From NCBI RefSeq assembly GCF_056746865.1, contig NZ_CM163382.1: a stretch of DNA of 64,000 nt; one strand, 5' to 3'. The notes beneath the pieces are model-generated. The model searched no databases. It saw only the letters and a list, made by a program, of their open reading frames with translations, and had not been told where the DNA came from. The position numbers and the translations under genes were made by a program. Positions 1 to 33,340 of this stretch are shown here, in pieces; within the stretch, counting starts at the first letter, position 1, and each line of letters opens with the position of its first letter.

Positions 1-3000
1 CATCGCCACGGACGACGTGATTAACGCCGCAGAAAAAGGCGCTGATTTAACGCTTTCCGGCACCACCACTAACGTAGAACCCGGTCAAACCGTCACCGTC
101 ACCTTTGGCGGGAAAAATTACACTGCCAGCGTAGCGAGCGATGGTAGCTGGACTGCCACCGTACCCGCCGCCGATCTGGCGTCATTACCCGAGGGCAGCG
201 CCTCCGCACAGGCCAGCGTCAGCAATATCAACGGCAATAGCGCCTCGGCGGTGCATAACTACAGCATCGATAGCAGTGCCCCGACCATCATTATCAATAC
301 CGTCGCCAGCGACAATATCGTCAACGCCAGCGAAGCCGATGCGGGTGTGACGGTGAGCGGCAGCACCACCGCTGAAGCGGGGCAGATTGTTACGGTTACG
401 CTCAATAGCCCGACCGTGCAGACCTATCAGGCAACGGTGCAGGCGGACGGCAGCTGGAGCATCAATATTCCGGCGGCAGATCTTGAGGCATTGACCGATG
501 GCAGCCACACCCTGACCGCCACGGTCAATGACAAAGCGGGCAACCCGGCGAGCACCACGCATAATCTGGCGGTGGATCTCACCGTTCCGGTACTTACCAT
601 CAACACCATTGCGGGCGACGATATTATTAACGCCGCCGAACACGGGCAGGCGCTGGTGATTTCCGGTTCCAGCACTGGCGGAGAAGCGGGGGATGTCGTC
701 ACCGTCACGCTAAACAGTAAAACCTACACCACGACGCTGGATGCTTCCGGCAACTGGAGCGTCGGCGTTCCGGCGGCGGATGTCACGGCACTGGGCAGCG
801 GCCCGCAAACTGTTACCGCCACGGTGACTGATGCGGCGGGTAATAGCGATAACGAGACGCACACGGTTACCGTTAACCTTGCTGCGCCGACCATTGGCAT
901 TAACACCATTGCTACCGATGACGTGATTAACGCCACCGAAAAAGGCGCGGATCTGCAAATTTCCGGCACCAGTAATCAGCCAGCAGGCACCACAATTACG
1001 CTGACGCTGAACGGGCAAAATTACACTGCGACGACGGACGCCGCAGGCAACTGGAGCACCACGGTGCCAGCTTCCGCAGTCGGTGCGCTGGGCGAAGCCA
1101 GCTACACGGTGACGGCGAACGTCACCGACAGCGCGGGCAACAGCAATTCCGCCAGTCATAACGTGCAGGTCAATACCGCGCTGCCTGGCGTCACCCTTAA
1201 TCCGGTGGCGAGCGACGACATTATTAACGCTGCCGAATCGGGCGTGGCGCAGACCATCAGCGGGCAGGTGACGGGCGCGGCGGCGGGCGATACGGTTACC
1301 GTAACGCTTGGCGGGAAAACTTACACCGCTACCGTGCAGGGGAATTTAAGCTGGAGCGTGGACGTTCCGGCGGCGGATATTCAGGCCATCGGCAATGGCG
1401 ACCTGACAGTTAATGCCTCGGTGACCAACGGCGTTGGTAATACCGGCAGCGGTTCGCGAGATATTACTATCGACGCTAATTTGCCTGGCCTGCGCGTCGA
1501 TACCGTGGCGGGCGATGATGTGGTCAACAGCATCGAGCACAGTCAGGCACTGGTGATAACTGGTAGCAGCAGCGGGCTGGCGGCGGGCGCGGCGCTGACG
1601 GTGGTGATTAACACGGTCACTTACGCTGCGACAGTATTAGCCGATGGCACATGGAGCCTTGGCGTTCCGGCGGCAGATGTGGGCAACTGGCCTGCGGGTA
1701 CGGTGAATATCACGGTTTCAGGTGCCACTAGCGCAGGAAACCCGGTCACTATCACCCATCCGGTCACCGTCGATCTGGCGGCGGTGGCGATCTCCATTAA
1801 CACCGTTTCCGGCGACGATGTGATTAACGCCGCCGAAAAAGGGGCAGATTTAACCCTTTCCGGCAGCACCTCCGGCGTGGAGCTGGGGCAAACGGTCACC
1901 GTTACCTTTGGCGGCAAAACCTACACCGCCACCGTAGCGGGCGATGGCAGCTGGACAACCAGTGTACCTGCTGCCGATCTCGCCGCATTACGCGACGGCG
2001 ACGCCACGGTACAGGCCAGCGTCAGCAATATTAACGGCAACACGGCTTCGGCGACCCACGCCTACAGCGTCGATGCCACGGCACCGACGTTTGCCATTAA
2101 CACCATCGCCACCGACGATATTCTGAACGCCGCCGAGGCGGGCAATCCGCTAACCATCAGCGGCAGTAGCACCGCCGAAGCGGGGCAGACGGTAACCGTC
2201 ACGCTTAATGGCGTGACTTACACCGGCACCGTCCAGGCGGATGGCAGCTGGAGCGTCAGCGTGCCGACGGCGGATCTCAGCAATCTGACCGCCAGCCAGT
2301 ACACGGTCAGCGCCTCGGTAAGCGATAAAGCGGGTAACCCGGCAACCGCCACTCATGGGCTGGCGGTGGATCTCACCGTTCCCGTATTAACCATCAACAC
2401 CGTCTCCGGCGATGACATTATTAACGCTGCCGAACACGGACAGGCGCTGGTGATCTCCGGCTCCAGCACTGGCGGGGAAGCGGGCGATGTCATCACCGTC
2501 ACGTTAAACAGTAAAACCTACACCACCACGCTGGACGCTTCCGGCAACTGGAGCGTCGGCGTTCCGCTGTCAGACGTTACTGCCCTTGGCAGCGGCCCGC
2601 AAACCATCACAGCTACCATTACCGACGCGGCAGGCAACAGCGATGATGCCAGCCGCACGGTCACCGTGAATCTGACCGCGCCAACCATTGGCATTAATAC
2701 TATTGCCGACGATGACGTGATTAACGCTACGGAAAAAGGCGCGGATCTGCAAATTACCGGCACCAGTAATCAGCCCGCAGGCACCACAATAACGGTGACG
2801 CTGAACGGGCAAAATTACACCGCCATAACAGATGCTTCCGGCAACTGGAGCGCCACGGTGCCAGCGTCAGCGGTCAGTGCATTGGGTGAGGCCAACTACA
2901 CGGTAACCGCGAACGTCACCGACAGCGCAGGCAACAGCAATTCCGCCAGCCATAACGTGCTGGTCAACAGCGCGTTACCTGCCGTCACCATTAACGCGGT

Positions 3001-6000
3001 GGCGGCCGATGACATTATTAACGCTGCCGAAGCGGGCAATGCGCAAACCATCAGTGGGCAGGTGACGGGTGCCGCGGCGGGCGACACAGTTACCGTTACG
3101 CTGGGTGGCAACACCTACACCGCCACGGTGCAGGCTAATTTAAGCTGGAGCGTTAGCGTGCCGGCGGCGGATATTCAGGCCATCGGCAATGGTAATCTCA
3201 CAGTAAACGCCTCGGTCACTAATGGCGTGGGCAACACCGGCAGCGGCTCGCGCGATATCACGATCGATGCCAATCTGCCTGGCTTGCGGGTCGATACCGT
3301 GGCGGGCGATGATGTTATTAACAGCATTGAGCACAATCAGGCGCTGGTGATAACAGGTAGCAGCACCGGGTTAACGGCGGGAACGGCGTTAACGGTCGAG
3401 ATTAACAACGTTACTTATGGCGCGACGGTATTAGCCGACGGCACGTGGAGCCTCGGTATTCCGGCGGCAGACGTCAGCAACTGGCCTGCGGGTACGGTGG
3501 ATATTACGGTAAGCGGCACCAACAGCGCCGGAACAACCTCTACCATTACCCATCCGGTTACCGTCGATCTGGCGGCGGTCGCCATCACCATTAACACCCT
3601 TTCCGGCGATGATGTGATCAACGCCGTGGAGAAAGGCGAAACGCTGGTCGTAAGCGGCAGCACCAGCGGTGTGGAAGCTGGGCAGACGGTGACCGTCACC
3701 TTTGGCGGTAAAAATTACACCACCACTGTGGAAGCCAACGGCAGCTGGACGGTGAATGTGCCGCCTGCCGATCTCGCTGCGCTACCGGACGGCGCGGGCA
3801 ACGTGCAGGCGAGCGTCAGCAATATTAACGGCAACAGCGCCCAGGCCGATCGCGCGTATAGCGTCGATGCCACCGCGCCGCTTATTACTATCAACACCAT
3901 CGCCAGCGACGATACTCTTAACGTGAGCGAAGCGGGCGCGGGGATCACCATCAGCGGCACCACCACGGCGCAGGCCGGGCAGACGCTGACCGTCACGCTC
4001 AATAACAACACGTACCAGACCACCATTCTCGCGGATGGCACCTGGAGCGTGAACGTTCCGGCAACGGATTTAAGCGGATTAACCGCCAGCAGTTATACCG
4101 TGACTGCGACGGTGAGCGACAAAGCGAGCAACCCGGCAAGCGCCGATCATGCGCTGGCGGTGGACGTTACCGCTCCGGATCTCACCATTAACACCGTCGC
4201 GGGCGATGACATCATCAACGCTATCGAACACGGGCAGGCGCTGGTGGTGAGCGGCACCAGCACGGGCGCGGCGGCAGGCGATGTGGTGACCGTCTCGCTC
4301 AACGGCAAAAACTACACCACCACGCTGGATGCCTCTGGTAACTGGAGCGTCGGTATCCCGGCGGCAGATGTGACGGCGCTGGCAACCGGAAGCCAGACCA
4401 TTACTGCCAGCCTGAGCGATCGCGCGGGCAACAGCGACAGCGCTACCCATAATGTCACCGTTGATCTTAGCGGCCCGACGCTGACCATCAGTACCGTCTC
4501 CGGCGACGACATCATCAATAATGCGGAGAAAACTCAGGATCTGACCATCAGCGGCGGCTCCAGCGGTCTGGCGACCGGCACCACGGTCACCGTGATGTTG
4601 AACGGCCTGGCGTACAGCGCCACCACCGATAGTTCCGGCAACTGGAGCGTTACCGTGCCTGCTTCGGCGGTCGGTGCCCTGGGCGAGGCGGTCTATTCGA
4701 TTAGCGCCAGCGCCACCGACAGCGCGGGCAACAGCGGCAGTACCACCCATACGGTGAATGTCGAATCGCTCCTGCCTGGGGTGATCATTAATACCGTGGC
4801 GGGCGATGACATTATCAACGCCGCTGAAATCGTTGTGGCGCAGACCATCAGCGGTCAGGTCACGGGAACGGCGGTTGCCGGGAATACGGTGATTGTCACC
4901 ATTGGCGGCAATCAATATAACGCCACCGTGCAGTCAGATTTAAGCTGGAGCGTCAGCGTACCGGCGAACGTTTTGCAGGCGCTGGGTAACGGTGAACTGA
5001 CCATCAGCGCCTCGGTGACCAATTCCGCAAATAATACCAGCACCGCGACGCACGATATCGTGATAGATGCCAACCTGCCAGGTCTGCGCGTCGATACCGT
5101 GGCAGGCGATGATGTGATTAACAGCATCGAGCACACTCAGGCGTTGGTGATCACCGGTAGCAGTAGCGGACTGGCGGCGGGCGCGGCGTTGACGGTGGTT
5201 ATCAATAGCGTCACCTACGGCGCAACGGTACTCGCCGATGGCAGCTGGAGCGTCGGTGTTCCGGCGGCAGATGTCACAAACTGGCCTGCGGGAACGGTCA
5301 ATATTGCCGTTTCTGGCACCAATACCGCCGGAACCACAACCAGCATTAGCCATCCGGTCACGGTCGATCTCGCGGCCGTGGCGATTACCATTAACACCCT
5401 TTCCACTGACGATGTGATTAATGCCGCCGAAAAAGGCAGCGATTTGCAGCTCTCCGGCACCACCTCCGATGTGGAAGCGGGGCAAACCATCACCGTTATC
5501 TTCGGCGGCAAAAGCTACACCACCACGGTTGCCGCGGGCGGCACCTGGGGGCTGACAATCCCAGCAGCCGATCTCGCAACCTTGCCTGACGGCGCAGCAA
5601 ACGTCCAGGCCAGCGTCAGCAACGTCGCAGGTAACAGCGCCCAGGCAACGCATGCTTACAGCGTCGATGCCACCGCGCCTTCCGTTACCATCAACACCAT
5701 CGCCACGGACGATATTCTTAACGCCGACGAAGCGGGATCGGCGCTGACCATCAGCGGCACCAGCACGGCGGAAGCCGGGCAGACGGTGACCGTGACGCTA
5801 AACGGCGTCAATTACAGCGGCAACGTGCAGGCAGACGGGAGCTGGAGCGTCAGCGTCCCGACCGGCGATTTAGCTAACCTCACTGCCAGCCCCTATACGG
5901 TGAGCGCAGCGGTCAGCGACAAAGCCGGAAATCCGGCCTCGGCGACGCATAACCTGACGGTGGATCTTGTTGCGCCGGTCGTTACCATTAACACGGTAGC

Positions 6001-9000
6001 GGGCGATGACATCATTAACGCCACAGAACACGGACAGGCGCAGATTATCAGCGGCTCGGCAACGGGCGCGACGACCGGTAACACGGTGTCCGTGACGATT
6101 GGCACGACCACTTACACCACCGTGCTGGACGCCAACGGCAACTGGAGCATCGGCGTGCCTGCCAGCGTGATTTCCGCACTGGCGCAGGGGAATGTGACCA
6201 TTACCGCCACGGTCACCGACTCCGCAGGCAACAGCGGCACGGCCTCGCACACTGTCAGCGTGGCGCTCGGCGCGCCGATACTGAGTATTAACACCATCGC
6301 CGTTGATGACATCATTAATGCCACGGAGAAAGGCGCGGATCTGGCGATTTCCGGAAGCAGCAACCAGCCTGCGGGTACGCAGATAACCGTTACGCTCAAC
6401 GGGCAAAATTACACCACCACTGCCGATGCATCCGGTAACTGGAGCGTGACCGTTCCGGCGTCACGGGTGAGCACCCTCGGTGAAGCCACTTACACGGTGA
6501 CTGCCGCCGCCACTGACGCCGATGGCAACAGCGGTTCCGCCAGCCATAACGTGCAGGTTAATACCGCGCTGCCGGGCGTCACCATTAACGTTGTCGCGAG
6601 CGACGATATTATTAACGCTGCCGAAGCGGGCGCGGGCCAGAGCATCAGCGGGCAGGTGACGGGCGCGGCAGCGGGCGACACGGTAACCGTCACGCTCGGC
6701 GAGGCGACTTACACTGCCACGGTGCAGGCGAATTTAAGCTGGAGCGTCGATGTTCCGGCCTCCGCGCTACAGGCGTTGGGCAACGGTGAACTGACCATTT
6801 CGGCTTCGGTAACGAACAGCGTAGGCAATACCGGCAACGGCACGCGCGAAATCACCATCGACGCGAATCTCCCCGGTCTGCGGATTGACACCGTGGCGGG
6901 CGATGATGTGGTCAACATTATCGAGCACGGGCAGGCGCTGGTGATTACCGGCAGCAGCTCCGATCTGGCAGCGGGCAGCAACGTCACGCTGACCATTAAC
7001 GGGCAAACCTATGTTGCGGCGGTACTGGCGGATGGCTCATGGAGCGTCGGCGTTCCGGCGGTGGATGTCAGCGCCTGGCCTGCGGGGACGGTCACGATTA
7101 CAGCCAGCGGCAACACCACCGCCGGAAACCCGGTGAGCGTTACGCATCCGGTGACTGTCGATCTCACTGCGGTGGCGGTCAGCATCAACGCCATTACTGC
7201 CGATGACGTGATTAACGCTGCCGAAAAAGGCGCGGCGTTAACGCTCTCTGGCAGCACTTCTGGTGTCGAAGCCGGGCAAACGGTCACCGTCACCTTTGGC
7301 GGCAAAACCTACACTGCAAGCGTCGCGGCGAATGGTTCCTGGAGTACCACGGTTCCGGCGACAGATATGGCAGCCCTGCGTGATGGCGATGCCAGCGCGC
7401 AGGCCAACGTCAGCAATGTTAACGGCAACAGCGCCACCACTACCCACGCTTACAGCGTCGATGCTACCGCGCCAACGGTGACCATTAACACCATTGCGGG
7501 CGACGACATTCTTAACGCCGCCGAAGCCGGAGCGGCGCTGACCATCACTGGCAGCAGCACGGCGGAAGCGGGGCAGACGGTGACCGTCACCCTCAATGGT
7601 GCAAACTATACTGGCACCGTACAGACGGACGGCAGCTGGAGCATCAGCGTACCGCCAGCCGACTTAAGCGCCCTGACCGCCAGCAACTACACCGTTAGCG
7701 CGGCGGTGAGCGACAAAGTCGGAAACCCGGCCTCGGTTAATCACAACCTGACGGTGGATACGTCTGTTCCGGTCGTCACCATCAACACGGTGGCAGGCGA
7801 TGATGTGATCAACGCGACGGAACACGCCCAGGCGCAGATTATCAGCGGCTCCGCCACGGGTGCGGCAACCGGCAGCGCCGTGACGGTGACTATCGGCACA
7901 AACACCTTTACCACCGTACTGGATGCCAGCGGTAACTGGAGCGTCGGCGTTCCGGCAAGCGTCGTCTCGGCGCTGGCGAACGGCACGGTGACCATTAACG
8001 CCAGCGTCACCGATGCCGCCGGAAACAGCGGCAGCGCTACGCATCTGGTGACGGTCAATACTGGCCTTCCGTCAATTACCTTTAACGCCATCAGCGGCGA
8101 TAACGTCCTGAACGCCGATGAAAAAGGCCAGCCGTTGACCATTAGCGGTAGCAGTACGGGGTTGGCGACCGGCGCACAGGTTACCGTCACACTCAACGGT
8201 CATAACTACAGCGCTACCACCGACGCGGCGGGCAACTGGACGTTAACCGTGCCGGTGAGCGATCTGGCGGCTTTAGGCCAGGCCAACTATATCGTCAGCG
8301 CCAGCGCCACCAGTGCGGCAGGCAACATCGCCAGCAGCCAGGCGAATTTACTGGTCGATAGCGGCCTGCCGGGCGTCACCATCAACACCGTGGCGGGCGA
8401 TGATATTATCAACGCCGCCGAAGCCGGGGCCGATCAAACCATCAGCGGGGTGGTCACTCGTGCCGCCGCTGGCGATACGGTTACCGTCACGCTGGGCGGC
8501 AACACTTACACCACCACGGTACAGGGCAACTTAAGCTGGAGTATCAGCGTTCCGGCAGCCGATCTCCAGGCGTTGGGCAATGGCGATTTGACCATTAACG
8601 CTTCGGTCACCAACGCGAATGGCAATACGGGCAGCGGTACGCGGGATATCACCATTGACGCTAACCTGCCAGGGCTGCGCGTGGATACGGTAGCGGGCGA
8701 TGATATCGTCAACAGCATTGAACACGGGCAGGCGCTGGTGATCACTGGCGGCAGTAGCGGCCTGAATGCAGGCGTGCCATTGACGATCACGATTAACGGC
8801 ACGGCTTATTCCGCCACGGTACAGGCAGACGGGAGCTGGAGCGTCGGCATTCCGGCGACAAACGTCAGCGCATGGCCTGCGGGGGCGTTAACCGTTGACG
8901 TGGCAGGCCAGAGCAGCGCCGGAAATCCGGTCAGCGTCAGCCATCCGTTCACCGTCGATTTAACGGCGGTGGCAATCAGCATCAACACCGTTGCCAGCGA

Positions 9001-12000
9001 CGACGTAATTAACGCCGCCGAAAAAGGCACCGACCTGACCCTTTCTGGCAGCACCAGCGGAATTGAAAGCGGGCAAACCGTTACCGTCACTTTTGGCGGT
9101 AAAACCTACACTGCAAGCGTCGCCGCCAACGGTAGCTGGAGTGTGAACGTTCCAGCGGCAGATCTGGCAACTCTGCCAGACGGCGCGGCGAACGTGCAGG
9201 CCAGTGTCAGCAGCGCGAGCGGTAACAGTGCCTCGGCGACCCATGCGTACAGCGTTGACGCCAGCGCACCGACGCTCACCATTAACACCATTGCCAGCGA
9301 CGATATTCTTAACGCCACGGAGGCGGGAAGCCCGCTCACCATCAGCGGCACCAGCACCGCCGAAACCGGGCAGACGGTCACCGTAACCCTTAACGGCGCA
9401 ACCTACAGCGGTAATGTGCAGGCAGACGGTAGCTGGAGCGTCAGCGTTCCCCCTTCAGCCTTAGGCGCGCTGACCGCAAGCAATTACACCGTCAGCGCCA
9501 CGGTCAACGACAAAGCGGGCAACCCCGGCAGCACCAGCCATAATCTGGCGGTAGACACCACCGCGCCGGTTCTCACCATTAACACCGTGGCAGGCGATGA
9601 CATCATCAACGATGCTGAACACGCCCAGGCGCTGGTGATTTCCGGCACCAGCAGCGGCGGGGAAGCGGGCGATGTGGTGAGCGTTGTGCTCAACGGCAAA
9701 ACCTACACCTCCACCCTGGATGCCTCCGGCAACTGGAGCGTTGGCGTTCCGGCGGCGGATGTTACGGCGCTGGGTAGCGGCGCACAGACCATCACCGCCA
9801 GCGTCAGCGATCGGGCGGGTAACAGCGATGACGCCAGCCGCACCGTGACCGTCAGCCTCAGCGCGCCAGTGATTAGCATCAACACCATCGCGGGCGATGA
9901 TGTGATCAACGCGACGGAAAAAGGATCTGATCTGACGCTTTCCGGCACCAGCGATCAGCCTGCGGGTACGGCGATCACCGTTACGCTGAACGGACAAAAC
10001 TACAGCGCCACCACCGACGCCTCCGGCAACTGGAGCGTTACCGTGCCTGCCTCTGCTGTCAGTGCGCTGGGCGAAGCCACCTACAGCGTGACGGCGAGCG
10101 TCACCAATGCTCAGGGTAACAGCAGCACCGCCAGCCATAACGTGCAGGTCAATACCGCGCTGCCGGGCGTCACCATTAATCCGGTGGCGACGGACGATAT
10201 TATCAACGCCGCTGAAGCAGGCAGTGCGCAAACCATCAGCGGCCAGGTAACCGGTGCGGCGGCGGGCAGCACCGTCACCGTTGAACTGGGCGGCAAAACT
10301 TACACCGCCACGGTCCAGGCTGATTTAAGTTGGAGTGTGAGCGTACCTGCCGCCGACTGGCAGGCGCTGGGTAACGGTGAGTTAACGGTTAATGCCTCGG
10401 TGACCAACGCCGTTGGCAACACCGGTAGCGGCACGCGCGATATCACCATCGATGCCAGTCTGCCTGGCCTGCGGGTGGATACCGTCGCGGGTGATGATGT
10501 GGTCAATATCATCGAACACAGTCAGGCGCAGGTGATCACCGGTAGCAGCTCCGGCTTTGCGGTGGGCACGGCGCTGAACGTAGTGATAAATAATCAAACT
10601 TACGCCGCCACGGTGCTGGCGAACGGCAGCTGGAGCGTCGGCGTTCCTGCGACGGATGTCAGTAACTGGCCTGCGGGAACGCTGAATATTACCGTTAGCG
10701 GCGCGAACAGTGCCGGAACGCAAACCAGCATTACCCATCCGCTGACCGTTGATCTCACCACCGTCGCCGTCAGCATAAACAGCATCACCAGCGATGATGT
10801 GATTAACGCCGCCGAAAAAGGCGCGGCGCTAACGCTCTCCGGCAGCACGTCCGGCGTCGAAGCGGGGCAAACCGTTACCATTACTTTTGGCGGTAAAACC
10901 TACACCACCACGGTGGCGGCAAACGGTAGCTGGAGCACCACCGTTCCGGCGGCGGATATGGCGGCCCTGCGTGACGGCGATGCCAGCGCCCAGGTGCGGG
11001 TGACTAACGTCAACGGCAACAGCGCCACGGCAACGCATGAATACAGCGTCGATAGCGCCGCGCCAACGGTCACCATCAACACCATTGCCAGCGATAACAT
11101 CATCAATGCCAGCGAAGCGGCGGCGGGCGTAACGGTGTCCGGCACCAGCACGGCGCAAACCGGGCAGACGCTCACCGTCACGCTTAATGGCACTAACTAC
11201 CAGACCACGGTGCAGGCAGACGGCAGCTGGAGCTTAACGCTGCCCGCCAGCGACTTAACCGCACTTGCCAATAACGGCTACACCCTGACCGCCACGGTCA
11301 GCGATTTGGCGGGTAACCCTGGCAGCGCCAGCAAAGGTGTGACCGTCGATACCACCGCGCCCGTCATCAGCTTTAACACCGTGGCGGGCGACGATGTGAT
11401 TAACAGAGTTGAACACACTCAGGCGCAGATTATCAGCGGCACCGCCACGGGCGCGGTGGCGGGCGACCGTCTGGTGGTGACCATCGCCGGGCAGCAGTAT
11501 GTCACCAGCACCGATGCCAGCGGCAACTGGAGCGTCGGCGTGCCTGCCAGCGTGATTTCCGGCCTTGCAGATGGCACAGTGACTATCAGCGCCACTATCA
11601 CCGATAGCGCAGGCAACAGCAGCACCCAGACGCACAACGTACAGGTAAACACGGCGGCAGTGTCGCTCTCGGTCAGCACCATCAGCGGCGATAATATTAT
11701 TAACGCCGCCGAAGCGGGCAGTGCGCTGACCCTGAGCGGCACCGGAACGAACTTTGCCGCAGGTACAGTGGTGACCGTGTTGCTTAACGGCAAAGGCTAC
11801 AGCGCTACCATTCAGAACAACGGGAGCTGGAGTGTGAACGTGCCGGCGGCAGACGTCGCGGCACTGGCGGATGGCACCAGCTACACGGTTAGCGCCTCCG
11901 CCCAGGATAGCGCCGGAAACAGCGCCACGGCCTCGCGCAGTGTGGCGGTGGATCTCACCGCGCCGGTTATCAGCATAAACACGGTTTCAACGGACGACCG

Positions 12001-17248: not shown

Positions 17249-17251
17249 AGA

Positions 17252-19414
17252 ATGAAAAAAAATGCCCAGTCCGTGGAAGCCTGGCTGGAGGCGATGATCG
17301 CCGTGGCGCGTTATTACCGCCTTGATTTTTCTCAGGAGAATGTGCGCGCGACCGTCAACTGGGAGCGCGACAGTAAGCGGGAGGAGTTACTCACCGACAT
17401 GGCGCGGCAGTTGGGGATGGGGCTTCGGCTGGTGGAGTTCTCCACCGACTCGCTCAACCCGTGGCGGCTGCCGTTGATCGCCGTTTTTGATAATCAACAA
17501 ATTGGCGTGATCACCCGCCGTGACAATCACGACAATATCAGCATTCAGTTTAGCGGTGACGAAGGGCTGGAAACTACGCTTAACGTCGCGGATGTTGAGG
17601 ATAAAATCGTTGAACTGGCGCTACTGCGCCCGCTCAGCGCCATCCCTGACGCGCGGGTAGATGACTATATTCGCCCGTATCAGGCGAACTGGTTCTGGAG
17701 CCTTTCGCTAAAAGACTGGCGGCGCTACGGCGATATTATGCTGGCCTCGCTGGTGGCGAACGTGCTGGCGCTGGCGGCGATGATTTTCTCGATGCAGGTT
17801 TACGACCGGGTGGTTCCGGCGCAATCGTACCCGACGCTATGGGTGCTGTTCGCCGGGGTGATGATGGCGATCCTGTTTGAGTTCTGTATGCGCATGGTGC
17901 GCACACATCTTTCGGATGTGATCGGCAAGCGGGCGGATCTGCGCATTTCGGATCGCGTTTTTGGTCACGCATTACGGCTGAAAAATAACGTGCGATCGAA
18001 ATCCACCGGATCGTTTATCTCGCAGATCCGCGAGCTGGAATCGGTGCGGGAGCTGATTACTTCCACCACCATCGGCGCGGTGGCGGATCTGCCGTTCTTC
18101 CTGCTGTTTGTCTTTATTTTATGGATGATCGGCGGCTGGCTGGTGCTGGTGGTTTTGCTGGCGCTGCCGTTATTGGTGATCCCCGGCCTGCTGGTGCAAC
18201 GCCCGCTGGCGCGGCTGGCGAACGAAGGGATGCGCGAGTCGGCGGTGCGTAACGCTACGCTGGTGGAAGCCGTGCAGTCGATTGAAGATATTAAGCTGCT
18301 GCGCGCCGAACAGCGTTTTCAGAATCAGTGGAACCACACCAACGACGTGGCCTCGTCCATCAGCATGAAGCAACGTTTTCTCACCGGGCTACTGCTCACC
18401 TGGACCCAGGAAGTGCAGTCCATCGTTTACGTCGTGGTGCTGTTGGTGGGCTGCTTTATGGTAATGAACGGTGACATGACCACCGGCGCGCTGGTCGGGA
18501 CGACGATCCTGGCTTCGCGCACCATCGCGCCGCTGTCGCAGATATCCGGCGTGCTCTCGCGCTGGCAGCAGGCGAAAGTGGCGCGCAACGGACTTGATGA
18601 ACTGATGAAGCGCCCGGTGGATCAGCCGGAACACGGCAAACTGGTGCATAAAGCGGTGCTACACGGCAATTATCAGTTCAGCAACGCTATCTTTTATTAC
18701 GATGAAGAAGAGAAAATTGCCGATGTGGCGATTGGCAAACTCAACATTCAGGCCGGAGAGAAAATCGCCATTCTTGGGCGCAACGGCGCGGGTAAATCAA
18801 CGCTACTGCAAATGCTCGCCGGAATGCGTATCGCCCAGCAGGGGCAGGTGCTGCTGGATAACATCAGCATCGGTCAGCTTGATCCGGCGGATCTGCGCCG
18901 CGACATGGGGCTGCTGAGCCAGACCGGGAGACTCTTTTTCGGTTCGCTGCGGGAAAACCTGACGATGGGGATGCCGGAAGCCAGCGATGAAGATATCGAA
19001 CGCGCGTTAACCCTCAGCGGGGCGCTGCCGTTTGTGCAGAAGCAGAAAAACGGCCTCAACTACATGATTCAGGAAGGGGGATTTGGCCTCTCTGGTGGTC
19101 AGCGGCAAACGCTGCTGCTGGCGCGGCTGCTCATCTCTCAACCCAATATCGTGCTGCTCGATGAACCCAGCGCCTCGCTGGACGAAATGGCGGAAGCGCA
19201 TTTAATCGAACAACTGAAACAGTGGATTGGCCATCGCACGCTGATTATCGCCACTCACCGCACGGCGATGCTGCAACTGGTGGACCGCATTATCGTGATG
19301 GATCAGGGGCGGATTGTGATGGATGGCGCGAAAGAGGCCATTTTGCGTGAACAGAGCGAACCCACGGCGCGACGGGTGGTGTTGCAGGAGAAGAATAAGG
19401 GGTCTGCCGCATGA
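17252..19414 (+). CDS. T1SS ABC transporter (ATPase/permease, HlyB/LapB-like) with N-terminal C39-like domain
   Basis: 720 aa. Walker A GRNGAGKST, ABC signature LSGGQRQ, Walker B IVLLDEP and H-loop ATHR are present, with hydrophobic segments in the middle. Starts 4 bp after the adhesin stop and overlaps the next gene by 4 bp. Confidence 0.9.
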   Translation: MKKNAQSVEAWLEAMIAVARYYRLDFSQENVRATVNWERDSKREELLTDMARQLGMGLRLVEFSTDSLNPWRLPLIAVFDNQQIGVITRRDNHDNISIQFSGDEGLETTLNVADVEDKIVELALLRPLSAIPDARVDDYIRPYQANWFWSLSLKDWRRYGDIMLASLVANVLALAAMIFSMQVYDRVVPAQSYPTLWVLFAGVMMAILFEFCMRMVRTHLSDVIGKRADLRISDRVFGHALRLKNNVRSKSTGSFISQIRELESVRELITSTTIGAVADLPFFLLFVFILWMIGGWLVLVVLLALPLLVIPGLLVQRPLARLANEGMRESAVRNATLVEAVQSIEDIKLLRAEQRFQNQWNHTNDVASSISMKQRFLTGLLLTWTQEVQSIVYVVVLLVGCFMVMNGDMTTGALVGTTILASRTIAPLSQISGVLSRWQQAKVARNGLDELMKRPVDQPEHGKLVHKAVLHGNYQFSNAIFYYDEEEKIADVAIGKLNIQAGEKIAILGRNGAGKSTLLQMLAGMRIAQQGQVLLDNISIGQLDPADLRRDMGLLSQTGRLFFGSLRENLTMGMPEASDEDIERALTLSGALPFVQKQKNGLNYMIQEGGFGLSGGQRQTLLLARLLISQPNIVLLDEPSASLDEMAEAHLIEQLKQWIGHRTLIIATHRTAMLQLVDRIIVMDQGRIVMDGAKEAILREQSEPTARRVVLQEKNKGSAA

Positions 19415-20586
19415 ACGGACAACTGCAATACAACCGTGGCCTGACTGAACCCCGCTTGCCGCGTTCGGCGCTGGCGGTACGCGTTACCGCTGTGATGCTG
19501 CTCTGTTTTCTCGGCTGGGCGTGGTACTTCCAGCTTGATGAAGTCACCACCGGCAGCGGCACGGTAGAACCCTCCGGGCGCGAACAGGTGGTGCAGTCGC
19601 TGGAAGGCGGAATTCTGTATCATCTCGACGTCAAGGTTGGCGATATTGTTGAACAGGGCCAGCCACTGGCGCAGCTTAACCGCACCAAAACGGAATCCGA
19701 CGTCCAGGAAGCAATGTCGCGGCTGTACGCGGCGCTGGCAACCTCGGCGCGGCTGCGGGCGGAAGTGAGTAATAAACCGCTGGTCTTCCCTGACGAACTG
19801 AATAAATTCCCCGAACTTATCGAGTCGGAAACGGCGTTGTACAACACTCGCCGCGATGGGCTGAACAAAGCCACCACCGGGCTGACGCAGGGGATTAGCC
19901 TGGTCAACCGCGAACTGGCGATGACCCAGCCGCTGGTAAAACAGGGGGCGGCGAGCAGCGTTGAAGTGCTGCGCCTGCAACGCCAGGCCAATGAACTGGA
20001 AAACAAACTCAGCGACGTGCGCACGCAATACTACGTTCAGGCGCGCGAAGAGTTAGCAAAAGCCAATGCGGAAGTGGAAACCCAGCGTTCGGTGATCCGT
20101 GGACGGGAAGACTCCCTCACCCGGCTCAACTTTACCGCGCCGGTACGTGGCATTGTTCAGGACATTGACGTCACCACGGTTGGCGGCGTTATTGCCCCCG
20201 GTGGTAAACTGATGACCATCGTGCCGCTGGATGAGCAACTGCTGATCGAGGCAAAAATCTCCCCGCGCGATGTGGCGTTTATCCATCCGGGGCAAAAATC
20301 GCTGGTGAAAATAACCGCCTACGATTACTCCATCTACGGCGGCCTGCCGGGAGAAGTGGCGGTGATATCACCAGACACCGTGCAGGATGAAGTACGGCGC
20401 GATGTTTATTACTATCGGGTGTACATTCGCACTTTCAGCAACCATCTGGAAAATAAAAGCAAACAGCAGTTTCCGATATTCCCCGGTATGGTGGCGACGG
20501 TCGATATCCGCACCGGCAAAAAAAGCGTGCTGGATTATCTGTTGAAACCCTTTAACAAAGCACAGGAGGCGTTGCGCGAACGATGA
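19411..20586 (+). CDS. T1SS periplasmic adaptor (HlyD-family membrane fusion protein)
   Basis: 391 aa. N-terminal transmembrane helix ([20 protein letters not shown]), long coiled-coil-prone central region, C-terminal beta domain; start overlaps the ABC transporter stop. Confidence 0.85.
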
Positions 20587-20990
20587 ACATTAGCGATGTA
20601 GCAAAAATTACCGGCCTGACCAGCAAAGCCATTCGCTTCTATGAAGAGAAGGGGCTGGTGACGCCGCCGATGCGCAGCGAAAATGGTTATCGAACCTACA
20701 CGCAGCAGCATCTCAACGAACTGACCTTACTGCGCCAGGCGCGCCAGGTGGGCTTTAACCTGGAAGAGAGCGGCGAACTGGTGAATCTGTTTAACGATCC
20801 GCAGCGTCACAGTGCCGACGTCAAACGTCGCACCCTGGAGAAAGTGGCGGAGATCGAGCGACATATCGAAGAACTGCAATCCATGCGCAACCAGCTGTTG
20901 GCGCTGGCGAATGCCTGCCCTGGCGATGACAGCGCCGACTGCCCGATTATCGAAAATCTCTCCGGCTGCTGTCATCATCGGGCGGGGTGA
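20583..20990 (+). CDS. cueR: Copper-responsive MerR-family regulator CueR
   Basis: 135 aa, [25 protein letters not shown]...[24 protein letters not shown], recognised as E. coli CueR with its C-terminal Cys metal-binding motif. Confidence 0.95.
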
Positions 20991-20993
20991 AAA

Positions 20994-21197
20994 TCAGTTA
21001 ATCCCCGTTTGCACCGAAAGAATATGCTGCAAACTTTCTACCATAATGCGCCCCGACTGAAATAAGCCTTCCTGGATTTCGTTGTTAACATTCACAGCGT
21101 GAACCAGGGAGGCTAATAACACCACTTGCAAGAAGGCAAAAATAAACGCACCGATAATCATAATATGCGTCAGGGGGATTTTCCTTTGCTCTTTCAT
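20994..21197 (-). CDS. Small single-pass membrane protein (67 aa), last gene of the autotransporter operon
   Basis: Hydrophobic helix IMIIGAFIFAFLQVVLLASLV. Its ATG overlaps the stop of the upstream lipoprotein gene (ATGA), suggesting translational coupling. Confidence 0.45.
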   Translation of the reverse strand: MKEQRKIPLTHIMIIGAFIFAFLQVVLLASLVHAVNVNNEIQEGLFQSGRIMVESLQHILSVQTGIN

Positions 21198-21616
21198 TTT
21201 AAATAACCCACAAACTGACCTTCCTTCATTAAGGCGACTTTTCCCGTGTGGTGATAAACAATGACGTTATAAAGACCTGACTGATAAACAGTGGCATCTT
21301 TATTGTCTTCATCAATTGCACATAATGAATCATTGAGATAAGCAAAGTTCTTACTGCTCATTCTAAAGGTCATGCCAAATCCTTTATAAATAGATTTTTT
21401 AGCGGCCTGGGCATGTTGTGCGGCTTCTGCATTTTTAAATGCCTGCGCTTCTGATGCACTTAAAATAGCCGCCTGACGCTGTTGTTCTGCGAGATAACAG
21501 GTGTCATGGCTGACGCCCTGCGCCTGGCAATCTGCGATGCGGGAAGTGGGTGAACTACAGCCAGCCAGTAATATAACCGCCAGCAGGGAAAACGATTTAA
21601 TGGAGCTATTCATCAT
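21194..21616 (-). CDS. Lipoprotein (140 aa) encoded immediately downstream of the trimeric autotransporter
   Basis: Signal peptide with lipobox LLAGC|SS; same strand as and 53 bp downstream of the autotransporter gene. Confidence 0.7.
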   Translation of the reverse strand: MMNSSIKSFSLLAVILLAGCSSPTSRIADCQAQGVSHDTCYLAEQQRQAAILSASEAQAFKNAEAAQHAQAAKKSIYKGFGMTFRMSSKNFAYLNDSLCAIDEDNKDATVYQSGLYNVIVYHHTGKVALMKEGQFVGYLK

Positions 21617-21669
21617 TGTTAACCTTAAATAATGTACGGAAAATTGCGAATAAGAAATTGCTGTTAAAA

Positions 21670-23454
21670 TTAGAACGAATATCCCACGCCGACACCCGCA
21701 CCGAAATCAGATTGTGTATCCGCAGAAATACCTGCTTTAAGTACCGTATGCGTTCCGGCATTAAAAGATGTTCCTACAGACACCGCAGATTCACCGTTGT
21801 ACGTTCCCGCTCCCGCTGACACCATCATCAAGTCACCGGTTTTCACCTGTGGTTGTGAGGCGATAGCGATGGCAGATGCAGTTCCCGCATTGGCTTCTTT
21901 ACGATTGTCCTCAACTTCGTTTTTCAGAGAATCGAAATGGTTATTGAGCGTAGTAATCTGCTGGCTATTATCCGCTACTCGTTTTTGCGTGTTGCTTAAC
22001 TGCTGATGCGTTTGGGTTACGTCTTGTGTCAGGCTGTCAATTTGTTCATGCGTTTGTGTTGAGTCTTGCGCCAGACGCTGAATTTGTTCCCCGTACTGCA
22101 CACTATCGATATGCTGTTGCGTTGCCTGGTTAGTCGCCAGAGTATCTATTTTTTGTTTTTGTTCTGCTGCAGTACGCGCATTCGCATCATTTTGTGCTCT
22201 CAGTCCGGCGTTAACCATCTCTTGATAATGTGCGTTGGTCTGGGCATCGCCAAGTGCGGAAACCGTTTTTTGCGTCGCGTCGATTTGTTTCTGCTGATCG
22301 TCCATTTGTTGCTGCTGGGTGTCAGCTTGTGCCTGTTGCGCATTGGCAGCGGCTGTCTGTCTGGCGTCAATCATGCTCTGATATCGGGCGGCAGTCTGCA
22401 CATCCCCGGTGGCGGCAACGGTTTTCCGGGTTTCGTCGAGTTGTTGCTGCTGGTCAGCAATATCGCTGCGGTTCTGTTCGATATTATTTTTGTTTTCTGT
22501 CACAGCACCGGAAAGTTTGACGCCGTTCATCAGAGCGGTGTTGGCGTTAGCGTTGGCATGGTCAGCCGTTGACTGGGCATGTGCGACATCGCCTTTTATG
22601 TTGGTGACGTCTGACTGCACTGCGGAGACATCATTACGGGTGTCGGCGATGGCGGCTTTATTGGCATCAATATCCGTCTGCGCCACCATAATGGCGTGCT
22701 GCGCGTCATCAGCTTTCATTGAAGCCCAGTTGGCGACATGTTGTGCGTCCTGAATGGCGGTATCCTGCCCGTTGTCGCGGACGATCTGTTTTTGCTCGTT
22801 TGATGCCAACAGTTTCTGCTGGTCGGCAATATCGCTGCGGTTCTGTTCGATGTTGTTTTTGTTTTCTGTCACAGCACCGGAAAGTTTGACGCCGTTCATC
22901 AGAGCGGTGTTGGCGTTAGCGTTGGCATGGTCAGCCGTTGACTGGGCATGTGCGACATCGCCTTTTATGTTGGTGACGTCTGACTGCACTGCGGAGACAT
23001 CATTACGGGTGTCGGTGATGGCGGCTTTGTTGGCATCAATATCCGTCTGCGCCACCGTGATGGCGTGCTGCGCGTCATCAGCTTTCAGTGAAGCCCAGTT
23101 GGCGGCATGTTGTGCGTCCTGAATGGCGGTATCCTGCCCGTTGTCGCGGTCGGTCTGCGCTTGATTGGTTATCGGGTTCAGCGTATTGGCGGGCTGTACG
23201 GGAGAGGCAGCTGTATTTTCCTGAGGTGTCGTTGTCCGGTAATCATGCGCAATCAGATAATTTTGTGCGGCTGCACTATTCCCTGTCCTTTCTAAAAATC
23301 GACCAATTTTCTGATCAATTTCCGATTGCGACATTCCTGGCTGGATTGCCGTTAATTCTGTCGTTGCCGCCTCAACAGTATCACCCGCAAACGCAGATGG
23401 ACTTACCGCGGTAGCAACAACGACAGCCAGTAAAGACAGCTTTACAGTTTTCAT
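21670..23454 (-). CDS. Trimeric autotransporter adhesin-like protein with YadA-like C-terminal anchor (~594 aa)
   Basis: Sec signal MKTVKLSLLAVVVATAVSPSAFA; long Q/A/D-rich coiled-coil-like stalk with internal repeats; C-terminus GTASAIAIASQPQ...GAGVGVGYSF matches the YadA-type anchor pattern. ATG chosen at 23454; the ORF track extends to a TTG at 23472. Confidence 0.8.
   Translation of the reverse strand: MKTVKLSLLAVVVATAVSPSAFAGDTVEAATTELTAIQPGMSQSEIDQKIGRFLERTGNSAAAQNYLIAHDYRTTTPQENTAASPVQPANTLNPITNQAQTDRDNGQDTAIQDAQHAANWASLKADDAQHAITVAQTDIDANKAAITDTRNDVSAVQSDVTNIKGDVAHAQSTADHANANANTALMNGVKLSGAVTENKNNIEQNRSDIADQQKLLASNEQKQIVRDNGQDTAIQDAQHVANWASMKADDAQHAIMVAQTDIDANKAAIADTRNDVSAVQSDVTNIKGDVAHAQSTADHANANANTALMNGVKLSGAVTENKNNIEQNRSDIADQQQQLDETRKTVAATGDVQTAARYQSMIDARQTAAANAQQAQADTQQQQMDDQQKQIDATQKTVSALGDAQTNAHYQEMVNAGLRAQNDANARTAAEQKQKIDTLATNQATQQHIDSVQYGEQIQRLAQDSTQTHEQIDSLTQDVTQTHQQLSNTQKRVADNSQQITTLNNHFDSLKNEVEDNRKEANAGTASAIAIASQPQVKTGDLMMVSAGAGTYNGESAVSVGTSFNAGTHTVLKAGISADTQSDFGAGVGVGYSF
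22440..23160. repeat. Near-identical ~369-bp tandem duplication (two copies) inside the autotransporter stalk
   Basis: Sequence from ctgctggtcagcaatatcgctgcggttctgttcg at 22447 recurs at 22816 with few mismatches; encodes the duplicated ~123-aa block DNGQDTAIQDAQH...NIEQNRSDIADQQ. Confidence 0.85.
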
Positions 23455-23472
23455 GCATTTTTTCTCTTTCAA

Positions 23473-23820
23473 AGTAAGTCACATATTTGTTTCTATAAGC
23501 AACGTAAAACGTTGTTATAAGAATTAATCTGCGTTGCAATTTGATCGAAATCTACGCCGCCATTTGTGTGATGTAAAGCGCATTTTTGTCTGGTGTAAGC
23601 GTAAACATCACCAATAAGAAACAAAAAATGTTTCTTATATAAATAAAATCGAAAATCATTTTGTGCTCTTTCAATGTAAAAAAGAGTAAAGACTTGTTTT
23701 GATAAGCGAAATAAATTCTGTTTCTGGACTAAACGTGAAGCGGTTCCTGATGTGTGCTAAAATGCGTTTCTTTGATAAATCTCAATTTTTAAGAGGTTTA
23801 CGCCAGGCAGGAAAATTTAA
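23473..23820. promoter_or_regulatory. AT-rich divergent control region between the autotransporter operon and a small ORF
   Basis: About 350 bp of markedly AT-rich non-coding DNA; perfect palindrome aagaaaca-aaaaa-tgtttctt at 23616-23636. Confidence 0.4.
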
Positions 23821-24183
23821 ATGAATGAATTTGAGAAGATTTTTAATGAAATGAATCTGGACCGGGCATTGCTACCGATCCTTTTTCGTTCGAACCGGTC
23901 AACAGTGTGGAAATATTTAAGTGGCGATAGTACGGCTCCTGCCTCAGCTATGTCACTGATTATGCTGTTGCAGTTAATCCAGAAACGAAACCCCGATCTG
24001 TTAGCCGAATGGTTAACGCTTTCTGATTTCACCATTCCGCCAGAAGTTTACCTGGACCAGCCTGATTACTGGAAAGGGTGGGTGTATACGCAACACAAGG
24101 TCAATAAAAACGTCCTGGAATATCTAAAAAAACATTATCCGGATGAAGACCAAAAAAACATGAATAAAGGTAGTGACGAGTAA
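23821..24183 (+). CDS. Hypothetical small protein (120 aa), possible helix-turn-helix regulator
   Basis: AT-rich ORF divergent from the autotransporter; segment SNRSTVWKYLSGDSTAPASAMSLIMLL loosely resembles an XRE-type HTH. No confident family assignment. Confidence 0.4.
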   Translation: MNEFEKIFNEMNLDRALLPILFRSNRSTVWKYLSGDSTAPASAMSLIMLLQLIQKRNPDLLAEWLTLSDFTIPPEVYLDQPDYWKGWVYTQHKVNKNVLEYLKKHYPDEDQKNMNKGSDE

Positions 24184-24194
24184 TTTGCCAATGC

Positions 24195-24365
<171 letters not shown>

Positions 24366-24367
24366 CA

Positions 24368-24826
24368 TCAGGCGATGACCGCACGGATGATCAGCGTTAT
24401 CCCTTCTATCGCAATGACTTCAACATGCGTACCTGCACCGAGATCCTCGCTGGCGCTGACAGGCCATGAACTGTCACCGACGCGCATATGACCTCGCCCG
24501 TTGACCAGCGGAGATTCCAGCACAAAACGTCGGCCAATAAGCTGCTGCCCGCGCTGGTTTAAATGACTGTCGCTGTGCTTTTGTTCGCGCACCCGCCGCG
24601 ACAACCATTTCCACCACAGCCAGGCGGCGAGCAGCGTCAGGACGGCAAACATCACCCCTTGCCACTCCCAACCCAGCGGCACCAGCCAGACCACCAGACC
24701 GGTAATCACCGCTGCCACGCCGCTCCACAACAAATAACCATTTCCGCCCAGCATCTCGGCTGCCAGCAGCAACCCGCCGAGACTGAGCCAGAAAATATGT
24801 GGATGAACGACCATTAACTCCATCAT
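24368..24826 (-). CDS. ybbJ: NfeD-family inner membrane protein YbbJ
   Basis: 152 aa, hydrophobic N-terminal half; overlaps the upstream stomatin-like gene, consistent with the qmcA-ybbJ pair. Confidence 0.85.
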
Positions 24827-25740: not shown

Positions 25741-25885
25741 CGGAAAAACCTCCTGTTGTACCGTCCATAATCAGCAAAATTGCTGCTTGATTAAACAAAT
25801 TATACCTGATTACTGAAAGAGAGTTCCCCCTTATTCCTGCGAAGGATAAACTGTTTTTAGTAAAAATCAGAAAAAGGGAACAGCG

Positions 25886-32797: not shown

Positions 32798-32809
32798 TGA
32801 CAGGCGTTA

Positions 32810-32930: not shown

Positions 32931-32942
32931 GCAATAAATATG

Positions 32943-33305: not shown

Positions 33306-33340
33306 AATAAAAAAACCGACTGTCATGTCGGTTTTTTTAT
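33306..33340. terminator. Bidirectional rho-independent terminator downstream of selU
   Basis: aaaaaaaccgac-tgtcat-gtcggttttttt: stem-loop flanked by an A-run and a T-run. Confidence 0.65.

Follow-up and report, generated by a model that had tools for sequence, protein, structure and literature searches.

How the copper regulator gene cueR came to lie between two accessory blocks is the question raised by the stretch of Escherichia coli DNA analysed here (64,000 nucleotides, referred to as the window). cueR, which encodes a Cu(I)-responsive MerR-family regulator and is the core gene between both blocks, was annotated at positions 20583-20990 on the plus strand. Block A, on its 5' side, carries a giant adhesin gene and a type I secretion system (T1SS). 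Block B, on its 3' side, carries an autotransporter gene. The first-pass annotation of this DNA described the former as GC-rich and the latter as AT-rich, and suggested at least two independent acquisition events at one hotspot.

The window is E. coli chromosome. Over positions 19000-27000, i.e., the 8-kb stretch that was searched, it showed 100% identity to the E. coli CFSAN061770 chromosome and to many further E. coli genomes, and the gene annotation for the whole window was taken from the CFSAN061770 record. By published papers and primer mapping, Block A was identified as O-island 28 (OI-28) of O157:H7, which is S-loop 42 of strain Sakai, and Block B as O-island 29 (OI-29), which is S-loop 43. 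Both islands have already been named and studied experimentally, and the first observation is a rediscovery. Our favoured reading, to which we give a probability of about 85%, is that OI-28 was present in the ancestor of the genus and was then deleted from most E. coli, and that OI-29 is a true insertion. The two blocks are indeed separate accessory segments with separate histories, as was first proposed. The evolutionary interpretation offered with that proposal fits the small islet; for the large block, its polarity and timing are wrong.

The extents of the blocks were also corrected. Block A measures approximately 25.8 kb in the CFSAN061770-type strain, begins approximately 5.3 kb before the window, and has its last 20.5 kb inside it. 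Block B spans 20991-24367 (3,377 bp), so that it ends at 24367 and not at 24183.

The deletion scar of OI-28

In K-12, the gene order is ybaT, a spacer of 124 bp, and cueR, and the stop codons of cueR and ybbJ directly abut. The spacer is composed of 28 bp of the sequence that follows ybaT and 96 bp of the 3' end of the gene for the T1SS membrane-fusion protein (MFP), with a 1-bp deletion that shifts the frame. In the window, the complete MFP gene of the HlyD family, the equivalent of hlyD28/z0635, is located at 19411-20586 on the plus strand, and its stop codon overlaps the cueR start by 4 nt (ATGA). Its final 96 nt, which alignment of the K-12 junction shows to be kept as a frameshifted fossil in E. 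coli without OI-28, occupy 20487-20582 on the same strand. The fragment was annotated by PGAP as a frameshifted partial pseudogene missing its N-terminus. The MFP of Citrobacter amalonaticus Y19 is encoded at another locus away from cueR, and is 81% identical up to the C-terminus in the same register as the E. coli protein. The MFP of the window scored 327.7 bits against TIGR01843, above the cut-off, and was aligned through the last residue of both protein and profile.

The other end of the spacer is also truncated. In the island strain, the 28 bp after ybaT lead into the ybaT terminator, a perfect hairpin of 9 bp with a T-run behind it (-16.3 kcal/mol, z = -7.2). This hairpin is destroyed in K-12, where its 3' arm is gone.

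Presence was counted by megablast with at least 80% coverage in 5,426 complete E. coli genomes. Every genome without the T1SS matched the last 100 nt of the MFP gene 5' of cueR, with an identical start base. A probe of the K-12 junction was contiguous in 4,458 of the genomes, K-12 included, and together with the 959 island carriers these account for 5,417 of 5,426. Therefore, a single deletion allele of approximately 25.8 kb explains essentially all absences, and the "empty" site of Block A in K-12 is a deletion scar, not an ancestral empty site. The shared deletion runs between the 3' arm of the hairpin of the ybaT terminator and MFP codon 359. It is reasonable to consider that OI-28 was lost from most E. 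coli by one such deletion, and that the deletion allele then spread through recombination.

A CueR scan with one genome per species, mapped by tblastn, yielded 80 loci, 75 of them outside Escherichia. No T1SS homologues adjoined cueR in these 75 loci. Their usual order was copA, approximately 110 bp, cueR, ybbJ, and qmcA, with copA more distant in some loci. In the eight non-Escherichia loci that were read, the DNA before the cueR ATG was the divergent copA promoter with a CueR box, unrelated to the MFP sequence. In Escherichia whittamii, Escherichia sp. E1V33, and some E. albertii, the genes for the adhesin, the ABC transporter, and the MFP were found next to cueR with the same 4-bp MFP/cueR overlap, and the ABC protein of the E. 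albertii carriers was 90-91% identical. The same position and overlap across Escherichia species indicate that OI-28 was inserted once, before the genus diversified.

At least three losses of OI-28 have followed. In the type strain of E. albertii, an intact ybaT hairpin and a degenerate MFP remnant of approximately 55 nt with a different endpoint are retained, and the scar represents an independent deletion. In strain SCPM-O-B-8794, an internal deletion reaches from the TolC-like gene to within the MFP gene, and the K-12 scar is present in Escherichia sp. MOD1-EC7003. The insertion in the Escherichia ancestor took place with or after that of glsA-ybaT, in the interval from the CueR-box promoter of copA to the first codon of cueR. 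It replaced the native cueR 5' region, leaving the cueR start 4 nt inside the MFP stop. The first-pass view of Block A as an insertion into an empty site is thus contradicted by the truncated ybaT terminator and the frameshifted 96-bp MFP fragment of K-12, and by the conserved position of the island in other Escherichia. Relative to the loci of other genera, Block A is nevertheless an addition.

The position of the CueR box was also recorded. In other genera, the box lies immediately 5' of cueR in the copA/cueR divergon. In Escherichia it stayed with copA, in the copA-glsA intergenic region (locus L002, 7836-8097), and glsA-ybaT, with or without OI-28, now separate the box from cueR. Therefore, glsA-ybaT are also Escherichia-specific additions at this locus.

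The cueR/ybbJ insertion site

On the other side of cueR, the ancestral state is seen in other genera. In most genera, Salmonella, Enterobacter, and Klebsiella among them, cueR and ybbJ end in stop codons that overlap or abut (-4 to +5 bp). In K-12, 0 bp lie between these stops and no OI-29 remnant was found. The last approximately 10 codons of ybbJ encode the tail LHIRAVSS in K-12, which is similar to the Salmonella and Citrobacter tails, and LIIRAVIA in all insert-bearing Escherichia alleles. Judged from these alignments, OI-29 appears to be a true insertion placed exactly between the abutting stops of cueR and ybbJ, with abutting stops being the ancestral enterobacterial arrangement.

Other cargoes were found at the same point. 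In E. albertii, E. whittamii, E1V33, and MOD1-EC7003, an open reading frame (ORF) of 407-409 aa follows cueR directly (e.g., L009 10409-11638 and L087 11665-12888); it showed no family match, and E. coli is completely without it. In many Citrobacter, Kosakonia, Phytobacter, and Siccibacter, a conserved insert of approximately 2.9 kb (L012-L018, L021, L023, and others; approximately 10400-13270) encodes a secreted-looking protein of 714 aa without a Pfam family and a DUF3142 protein of 251 aa. The cueR/ybbJ site has taken at least three unrelated cargoes across Enterobacteriaceae and is a recurrent hotspot. The idea of a hotspot therefore holds on this side of cueR.

In Lelliottia sp. V86_10 (L060 5102-13036), an OI-29-like module was found, consisting of the 120-aa ORF, two tandem YadA-anchor genes, the lipoprotein gene, and the small ORF. 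This module adjoins a large serine recombinase of 600 aa (Resolvase, Recombinase, and Zn_ribbon domains), which appears to interrupt qmcA, and the module is probably an integrative element. In the annotation of either block of the window, no mobility genes, i.e., integrase or transposase, and no tRNA genes were found, the tRNA being judged from annotation alone. As flanking repeats or a target-site duplication of OI-29, only a 17-nt repeat of 82% identity (20922 and 24371) was detected, which is probably due to chance and is wrongly placed for a deletion. A plasmid vehicle for OI-29 was also rejected, the matches in the plasmid collection being mislabelled chromosomes or the repetitive extragenic palindrome (REP) part only. 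Tested as classical islands, both OI-28 and OI-29 show a sporadic distribution and neither shows mobility hallmarks; an ancestral empty site was found only for OI-29.

Distribution, base composition and rival histories

The ABC and MFP genes of Block A were detected in 959 of the 5,426 genomes (18%), and the OI-29 core, i.e., the genes of the 67-aa protein and the lipoprotein, in 1,411 (26%). A probe spanning MFP, cueR, and the OI-29 core was matched in 955 genomes. Approximately 456 genomes have Block B only, and approximately 4,000 have neither block. Presence is nested, with Block A found almost only together with Block B (955/959), and the blocks are in this respect not independent as had been proposed.

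The divergence between K-12 and the window peaks in the 3' half of cueR and the last ybbJ codons, with 86-93% identity against 97-100% in the flanks. The cueR 3' half of the window (20787-20990) is 92.6% identical to K-12 and 94.6% identical to O157, similar to the values between species. This polymorphism lies at synonymous sites, and the CueR proteins of O157 and the window strain are identical (same WP accession). The 5' halves of cueR in O157 and Escherichia sp. E1V33 are 100% identical, suggesting an exchange between species. GN03139, a strain with Block B only, combines the K-12 scar with a window-type cueR 3' end and is a recombinant within cueR. This is in agreement with old haplotypes reshuffled by recombination, and accounts for the three-haplotype pattern.

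The GC content was 60.3% in the Block A part (1-20582), 46.6% in Block B (20991-24367), and 51.8% in the remainder (24368-64000). The contrast that was first noticed is real in these raw numbers, but neither block is uniform. As the core reference, a local sample of approximately 40 kb was used, i.e., 38 flanking genes or windows from 24368-64000. The 38 genes showed a GC of 52.7 +/- 4.3% and a third-position GC (GC3) of 56.7 +/- 7.0% (range 35.9-67.6%). In Block A, GC and GC3 were 60.9% and 73.1% for the adhesin gene siiEA, 57.5% and 72.3% for the ABC gene, and 56.9% and 66.6% for the MFP gene. The core genes cueR (56.4% and 67.6%), ybbJ (58.2% and 66.7%), and ybbP (57.7% and 67.2%) are comparable. 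The ABC and MFP genes are no GC-richer than these three, and the adhesin gene is the sole outlier in Block A; the TolC-like gene of OI-28, outside the window, has 51.8% GC. In Block B, the coding sequence of the trimeric autotransporter is core-like (GC 51.4%, GC3 51.8%). The AT-richness is confined to three small ORFs of 42-43% GC and a spacer. Against core windows of equal size, ABC+MFP lie at the 95th percentile and Block B at the 4th.

The Karlin codon bias against the pooled core was 0.31 for siiEA, 0.335 for ABC, 0.336 for MFP, and 0.277 for the autotransporter. Core genes of at least 250 codons gave 0.287 +/- 0.05 with a maximum of 0.371. Because the values of the block genes fall inside this range, their codon usage is not distinguishable from the core. 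The dinucleotide signatures (delta*) of ABC+MFP and of Block B are inside the core range as well. When the proteins were re-encoded with core codon preferences, 3.4 of the 7.7 points of GC excess in the adhesin were due to amino-acid composition (T 15%, A 13%, G 11%, V 10%, S 10%). A synonymous residue of +4 to +5 points remained in all three Block A genes, and of -2 to -6 points in all four Block B genes. The adhesin orthologues of Citrobacter amalonaticus and E. albertii are equally GC-rich (58-60% GC, GC3 68-72%), which makes the high GC content a trait of this gene family.

Most of the contrast comes from the amino-acid make-up of the adhesin, from the GC3 bias of its family, and from a small number of short ORFs and spacers rich in AT. 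As a signature of foreign DNA, it is not clean. The raw contrast is weak evidence of foreign origin because the codon bias matches that of the neighbouring core genes. The first-pass annotation had named GC content and codon usage indistinguishable from the flanking core genes as the outcome that would speak against acquisition; half of that outcome, the core-like codon usage, was found, and composition serves only weakly as a mark of acquisition.

Several histories can be set against the favoured one. That both blocks are independent, fairly recent horizontal islands in an empty backbone of the K-12 type (copA-glsA-ybaT-cueR-ybbJ), gained in the lineages where they now occur, is very improbable. 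The papers on OI-28 and OI-29 are worded in the same way (PMC12758282, PMC5826968), and the literature holds an "acquisition" of OI-28 and four independent gains of OI-29. The patchy distribution of the blocks, their GC-rich and AT-rich character in raw numbers, and the GC3 of the adhesin and ABC genes, which no core gene of the local sample reaches, are in agreement. It is hard to reconcile with the truncated terminator and the MFP fragment in the supposedly empty site of K-12, with OI-28 at the identical position in three other Escherichia species, and with the nesting of Block A in Block B. The codon bias equal to that of core genes, an annotation free of mobility genes, and the lack of copies on genuine plasmids also count against it. 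The opposite history places both blocks in the Escherichia ancestor and makes all absences losses, the K-12 cueR|ybbJ junction having arisen by deletion of OI-29 or by an imported empty allele. It gains from OI-29 in E. whittamii and E1V33, from a remnant of the 67-aa gene in MOD1-EC7003, from some insert at cueR/ybbJ in all four non-coli Escherichia genomes, and from the divergence peak at the cueR 3' end, which indicates very old haplotypes. Nevertheless, it is unlikely. The K-12 junction has zero spacer and no OI-29 remnant, its form is that of Salmonella, Enterobacter, Klebsiella, and others (-4 to +5 bp), and its ybbJ tail LHIRAVSS is outgroup-like, unlike the insert-linked allele. A deletion would need to be base-exact on both sides.

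A further explanation concerns the contrast itself, which could be uninformative on history and made by gene function, i.e., by a Thr/Ala/Gly-rich repeat adhesin on one side and on the other by small membrane or secreted proteins and their AT-rich promoter spacers. The share of amino-acid composition in the adhesin excess (3.4 of 7.7 points), the equally GC-rich Citrobacter and E. albertii orthologues, the core-like GC of the TolC-like gene and of the autotransporter coding sequence, and Karlin B and delta* values within the core range all fit. The synonymous shift is consistent, however, from +4 to +5 in three Block A genes and from -2 to -6 in four Block B genes, and other genera show both blocks to be additions to the enterobacterial backbone. 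As a full account, gene function is a possibility that we hold tentatively, with the balance tilted against it.

The reading of an ancestral OI-28 and an inserted OI-29 has its own weak points. One deletion spread by recombination would rest on an identical junction, a 1-bp frameshift, and one recombinant (GN03139). The Escherichia species were sampled without E. fergusonii. No insertion mechanism was seen for either block, i.e., no integrase, tRNA, or flanking repeats. OI-29 occurs in E. whittamii, E1V33, and basal E. coli, and could be ancestral too, with the empty site of K-12 being secondary; the sole counter to this appears to be the outgroup-like form of the empty site. Finally, the GC3 of the adhesin and ABC genes (72-73%) exceeds that of all 38 local core genes (maximum 67.6%), and some compositional signal of foreign origin persists there.

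Gene content of the islands and the expression of cueR

OI-28 shows the full set of features of a giant adhesin with its secretion system. Upstream of the window, ybaT is followed by a TolC-family gene, both 5' of siiEA by annotation. The siiEA gene, "BapA-related adhesin SiiEA" in RefSeq and the equivalent of z0609/z0615 of O157, is 20,778 nt long (6,925 aa). It starts 3,530 nt before the window, and its 3' 17.2 kb occupy 1-17248 on the plus strand as an uninterrupted ORF. It is followed on the same strand by the gene of the type I secretion ABC permease/ATPase of the LssB/LapB type (17252-19414, the equivalent of hlyB28/z0634) and by the MFP gene. In siiEA, Big_13 (E about 1e-61) and Big_6 repeats, FG-GAP, and RTX nonapeptide (HemolysinCabind) domains were found, with a C-terminal T1SS target domain (TIGR03661, 34.9 bits against a cut-off of 17.6) and, outside the window, a BapA_N prefix in the N-terminus (E=1.3e-18). 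The ABC protein matched TIGR03375 (836.8 bits, cut-off 693) and the Pfam families ABC_membrane and ABC_tran, and the product of the TolC-like gene matched TIGR01844 (416 bits, above the cut-off). A BapA-like prefix, tandem immunoglobulin (Ig)-like domains, a C-terminal RTX region with a T1SS signal, and dedicated ABC, MFP, and TolC components are thus all present. The operon is predicted to comprise a TolC-like channel, a BapA/SiiE-like Ca-binding Ig-repeat adhesin of 6,925 aa, an LssB-type ABC exporter, and the MFP. The adhesin would be exported in one step via the ABC-MFP-TolC channel, with the C-terminal signal as the guide. By analogy with the O157 literature, it probably mediates attachment in the window strain.

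The OI-28 genes were named in a 2025 paper as z0608 tolC28, z0609/z0615 rtxA28/rtxB28, z0634 hlyB28, and z0635 hlyD28 (PMC12758282). The same paper reported activation by RstA and Ca2+, a requirement for adherence and mouse colonisation, and a demonstrated T1SS adhesion function in O157 and O145. A syntenic locus of enteroaggregative E. coli 042, Ec042-0526-0531, was reported in 2010 (PMC2808357). OI-28 of EDL933 (z0608-z0635; Sakai ECs0540-0544) shares with the window the position between ybaT and cueR and the gene order. The ABC+MFP DNA is 95-97% identical in enterohaemorrhagic strains, O145 included, and O157 FRIK944 and the window strain have the same MFP protein, under one accession. The window adhesin differs in being one intact ORF of 6,925 aa, whereas it is split or frameshifted in EDL933 and 042, and the papers regard the island as acquired and do not mention cueR. 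The BapA/BapBCD and SiiE/SPI-4 systems of Salmonella and LapA/LapBCE of Pseudomonas are similar in BapA_N, tandem Ig-like domains, the RTX and T1SS C-terminus, and their own LssB/LapB-type ABC, MFP, and TolC-like channel. The OI-28 system is nevertheless a separate orthologue group, with its nearest relatives beyond Escherichia in Citrobacter (ABC 84%) and Enterobacter (81%). The name siiEA could be traced only to the annotation label "adhesin for cattle intestine colonization" of ECUMN_0527.

In Block B, a gene for a YadA-type trimeric autotransporter (TAA) of 594 aa, i.e., z0639/ECs0548/"GmrA", was found at 21670-23454 on the minus strand. It is followed on this strand by the genes of a 140-aa lipoprotein (21194-21616, z0638 of OI-29 by primer mapping, with an LLAGC lipobox) and of a 67-aa small protein (20994-21197), which has a hydrophobic stretch and is probably a membrane protein. 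The gene of the 67-aa protein closes the autotransporter operon and has a 4-nt overlap with the lipoprotein gene. On the plus strand, a 120-aa ORF (23821-24183, z0640 by primer mapping) is all-helical and possibly helix-turn-helix-like. Between it and the TAA gene lies the divergent intergenic region of 32% GC (23455-23820), called the leader in the first-pass annotation, with one weak promoter-like site on the minus strand. A cluster of REP elements and bacterial interspersed mosaic elements (BIME) forms the right end of OI-29 (24213-24367), with naRNA4 (RF02564) at 24241-24318 (71.9 bits, gathering score 59.5). The cluster is multi-copy, with approximately 20 matching places per genome. The Rfam scan of 20000-25000 gave nothing above threshold besides this REP-derived naRNA4. 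OI-29 is predicted to consist of an operon of TAA, lipoprotein, and small membrane protein, with the divergent 120-aa ORF and the REP cluster. The core gene ybbJ follows at 24368-24826 on the minus strand, and then qmcA, fetAB, and more core genes.

OI-29 of EDL933 was described with 2,643 bp and the genes z0638, z0639 (gmrA), and z0640, and Z0639 was called a transcriptional activator, with DNA binding reported for it (PMC5826968); the Sakai annotation of ECs0548 is a "Saa-like" protein (PMC2323221). The deletion primers of PMC5826968 were mapped by blastn-short on the O157 genome and the window. z0638 is the lipoprotein gene and z0640 the 120-aa ORF. The gmrA deletion primers flank exactly the z0639 coding sequence, a "YadA family autotransporter adhesin" in RefSeq (O157 locus L085, 3711-4727). 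The YadA_anchor family (PF03895) was matched with E=3.6e-12 in the window TAA and E=1.1e-11 in the O157 orthologue, and by phmmer the anchor matches the solved anchors of AtaA, Hia, and YadA. The N-terminus, MKTVKLSLLAVVVATAVSPSAFA, read directly from the sequence, resembles a signal peptide. A stalk may be assumed from sub-threshold Rad50/SMC coiled-coil matches (33 bits against an NCBIfam cut-off of 1,087). No head or neck Pfam families were detected in the TAA, and no DNA-binding family in the z0639 protein, where YadA_anchor was the sole family above threshold. On these sequence features, Z0639/"GmrA", published as a transcription factor, is best regarded as the product of a YadA-type trimeric autotransporter gene.

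The islet of the window shares with that of EDL933 the position between cueR and ybbJ and its genes, with 96% identity to O157 over the core formed by the 67-aa and lipoprotein genes. It differs in length (3,377 bp vs. 2,643 bp) and in a longer, partly duplicated TAA stalk (594 aa vs. 338 aa in O157). A 369-bp tandem duplication (22443-23157, 1.9 copies, 96-97% identical by repeat analysis) contributes to this difference. The 67-aa ORF is unnamed in PMC5826968. PGAP calls the TAA in RefSeq as 350 aa only (21670-22719); the uninterrupted 594-aa ORF reaches 23454, and its start aligns with the O157 protein start. With YadA, Hia, AtaA, and the E. coli proteins Saa, UpaG, and EhaG, the TAA has in common a C-terminal YadA anchor of 60 residues; its N-terminus, which resembles a signal peptide, and a putative long helical stalk rich in Ala and Gln would also fit this family. 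The TAA differs from these in having no recognisable head or neck, in being very short in O157, and in being followed by lipoprotein and small membrane-protein genes, with nothing supporting a SadB-like role.

The small proteins of the islet were searched separately. The 67-aa protein had no family match in Pfam or NCBIfam, and its homologue stands at the same position in the Lelliottia module. The lipoprotein family is restricted to Enterobacteriaceae and has a conserved Cys pair, and its AlphaFold2 (AF2) model (mean pLDDT 74) shows a helical hairpin and an 8-stranded beta domain. A SadB-like role as a helper in autotransporter biogenesis was rejected for it, since no PDB sequence match was found and the Foldseek matches had E=0.05 or worse and TM below 0.3. 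The 120-aa ORF has a conserved NRST.xKYL motif and no Pfam, NCBIfam, or PDB sequence match. Its AF2 model (mean pLDDT 73) gave HigA/XRE-like fold matches that were insignificant (E about 3), and it is a candidate regulator of the islet.

The state of OI-28 may also bear on cueR, which in all Escherichia appears to have lost the ancestral divergent copA/cueR promoter. In OI-28-positive strains, cueR would be coupled in translation to the adhesin-secretion operon as its final cistron, and this operon is reportedly controlled by RstA and Ca2+. In deletion strains (82% of E. coli), the ybaT terminator is cut, and cueR would come to close the glsA-ybaT operon, which is inducible by copper and acid, and would be under positive autoregulation via the CueR box at copA/glsA. 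A ybaS-ybaT-cueR operon was predicted earlier in E. coli (PMC1526738), and co-induction by copper and acid was reported (PMC9628877); the loss of the ybaT terminator by deletion is consistent with both. In neither the window nor K-12 did simple sigma-70 scans give a promoter-like site on the plus strand 5' of cueR. Overall, these scans gave no more sites than shuffled sequence did, and the null result is compatible with cueR co-transcription and lends it weak support.

In a full-text search of the literature, no paper was found that links ybaT, cueR, and type I secretion. Four points appear to be undescribed in the literature searched. One is the deletion scar of K-12, through which 82% of complete E. 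coli genomes keep an MFP fossil and a cut ybaT terminator. The others are that OI-28 is ancestral in Escherichia, that the cueR/ybbJ stops form a hotspot for several cargoes, and that "GmrA" is a trimeric autotransporter. The ancestry of OI-28 has a meaning for its presentation as an acquired pathogenicity island, since its link with "pathogenic" lineages would be one of retention, not gain. K-12-like strains are deletion mutants still bearing a fossil of the last OI-28 gene, and the deletion would join cueR to the glsA-ybaT operon. GmrA has been published and reviewed as a transcription factor, and its predicted outer-membrane TAA architecture means that the mechanism needs re-examination. 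If it is a surface autotransporter, its effect on motility would have to be indirect. The combined proposal that the OI-28 state rewires cueR expression and that OI-29 is an adhesin cassette rather than a regulatory island, with an indirect GmrA effect on motility, is rather doubtful as a whole.

A third polymorphic site of the window was noted at the ybbP-selU/mnmH junction. Here the window has a spacer of approximately 600 bp (32798-33401) with REP-like sequence and two copies of the hairpin AAAAAAACCGACTGTCATGTCGGTTTTTTT. At the same site, K-12 carries the 7.3-kb RhsD element (rhsD-ybbC-ylbH-ybbD-ylbI-ylbG), which is unrelated to this spacer.

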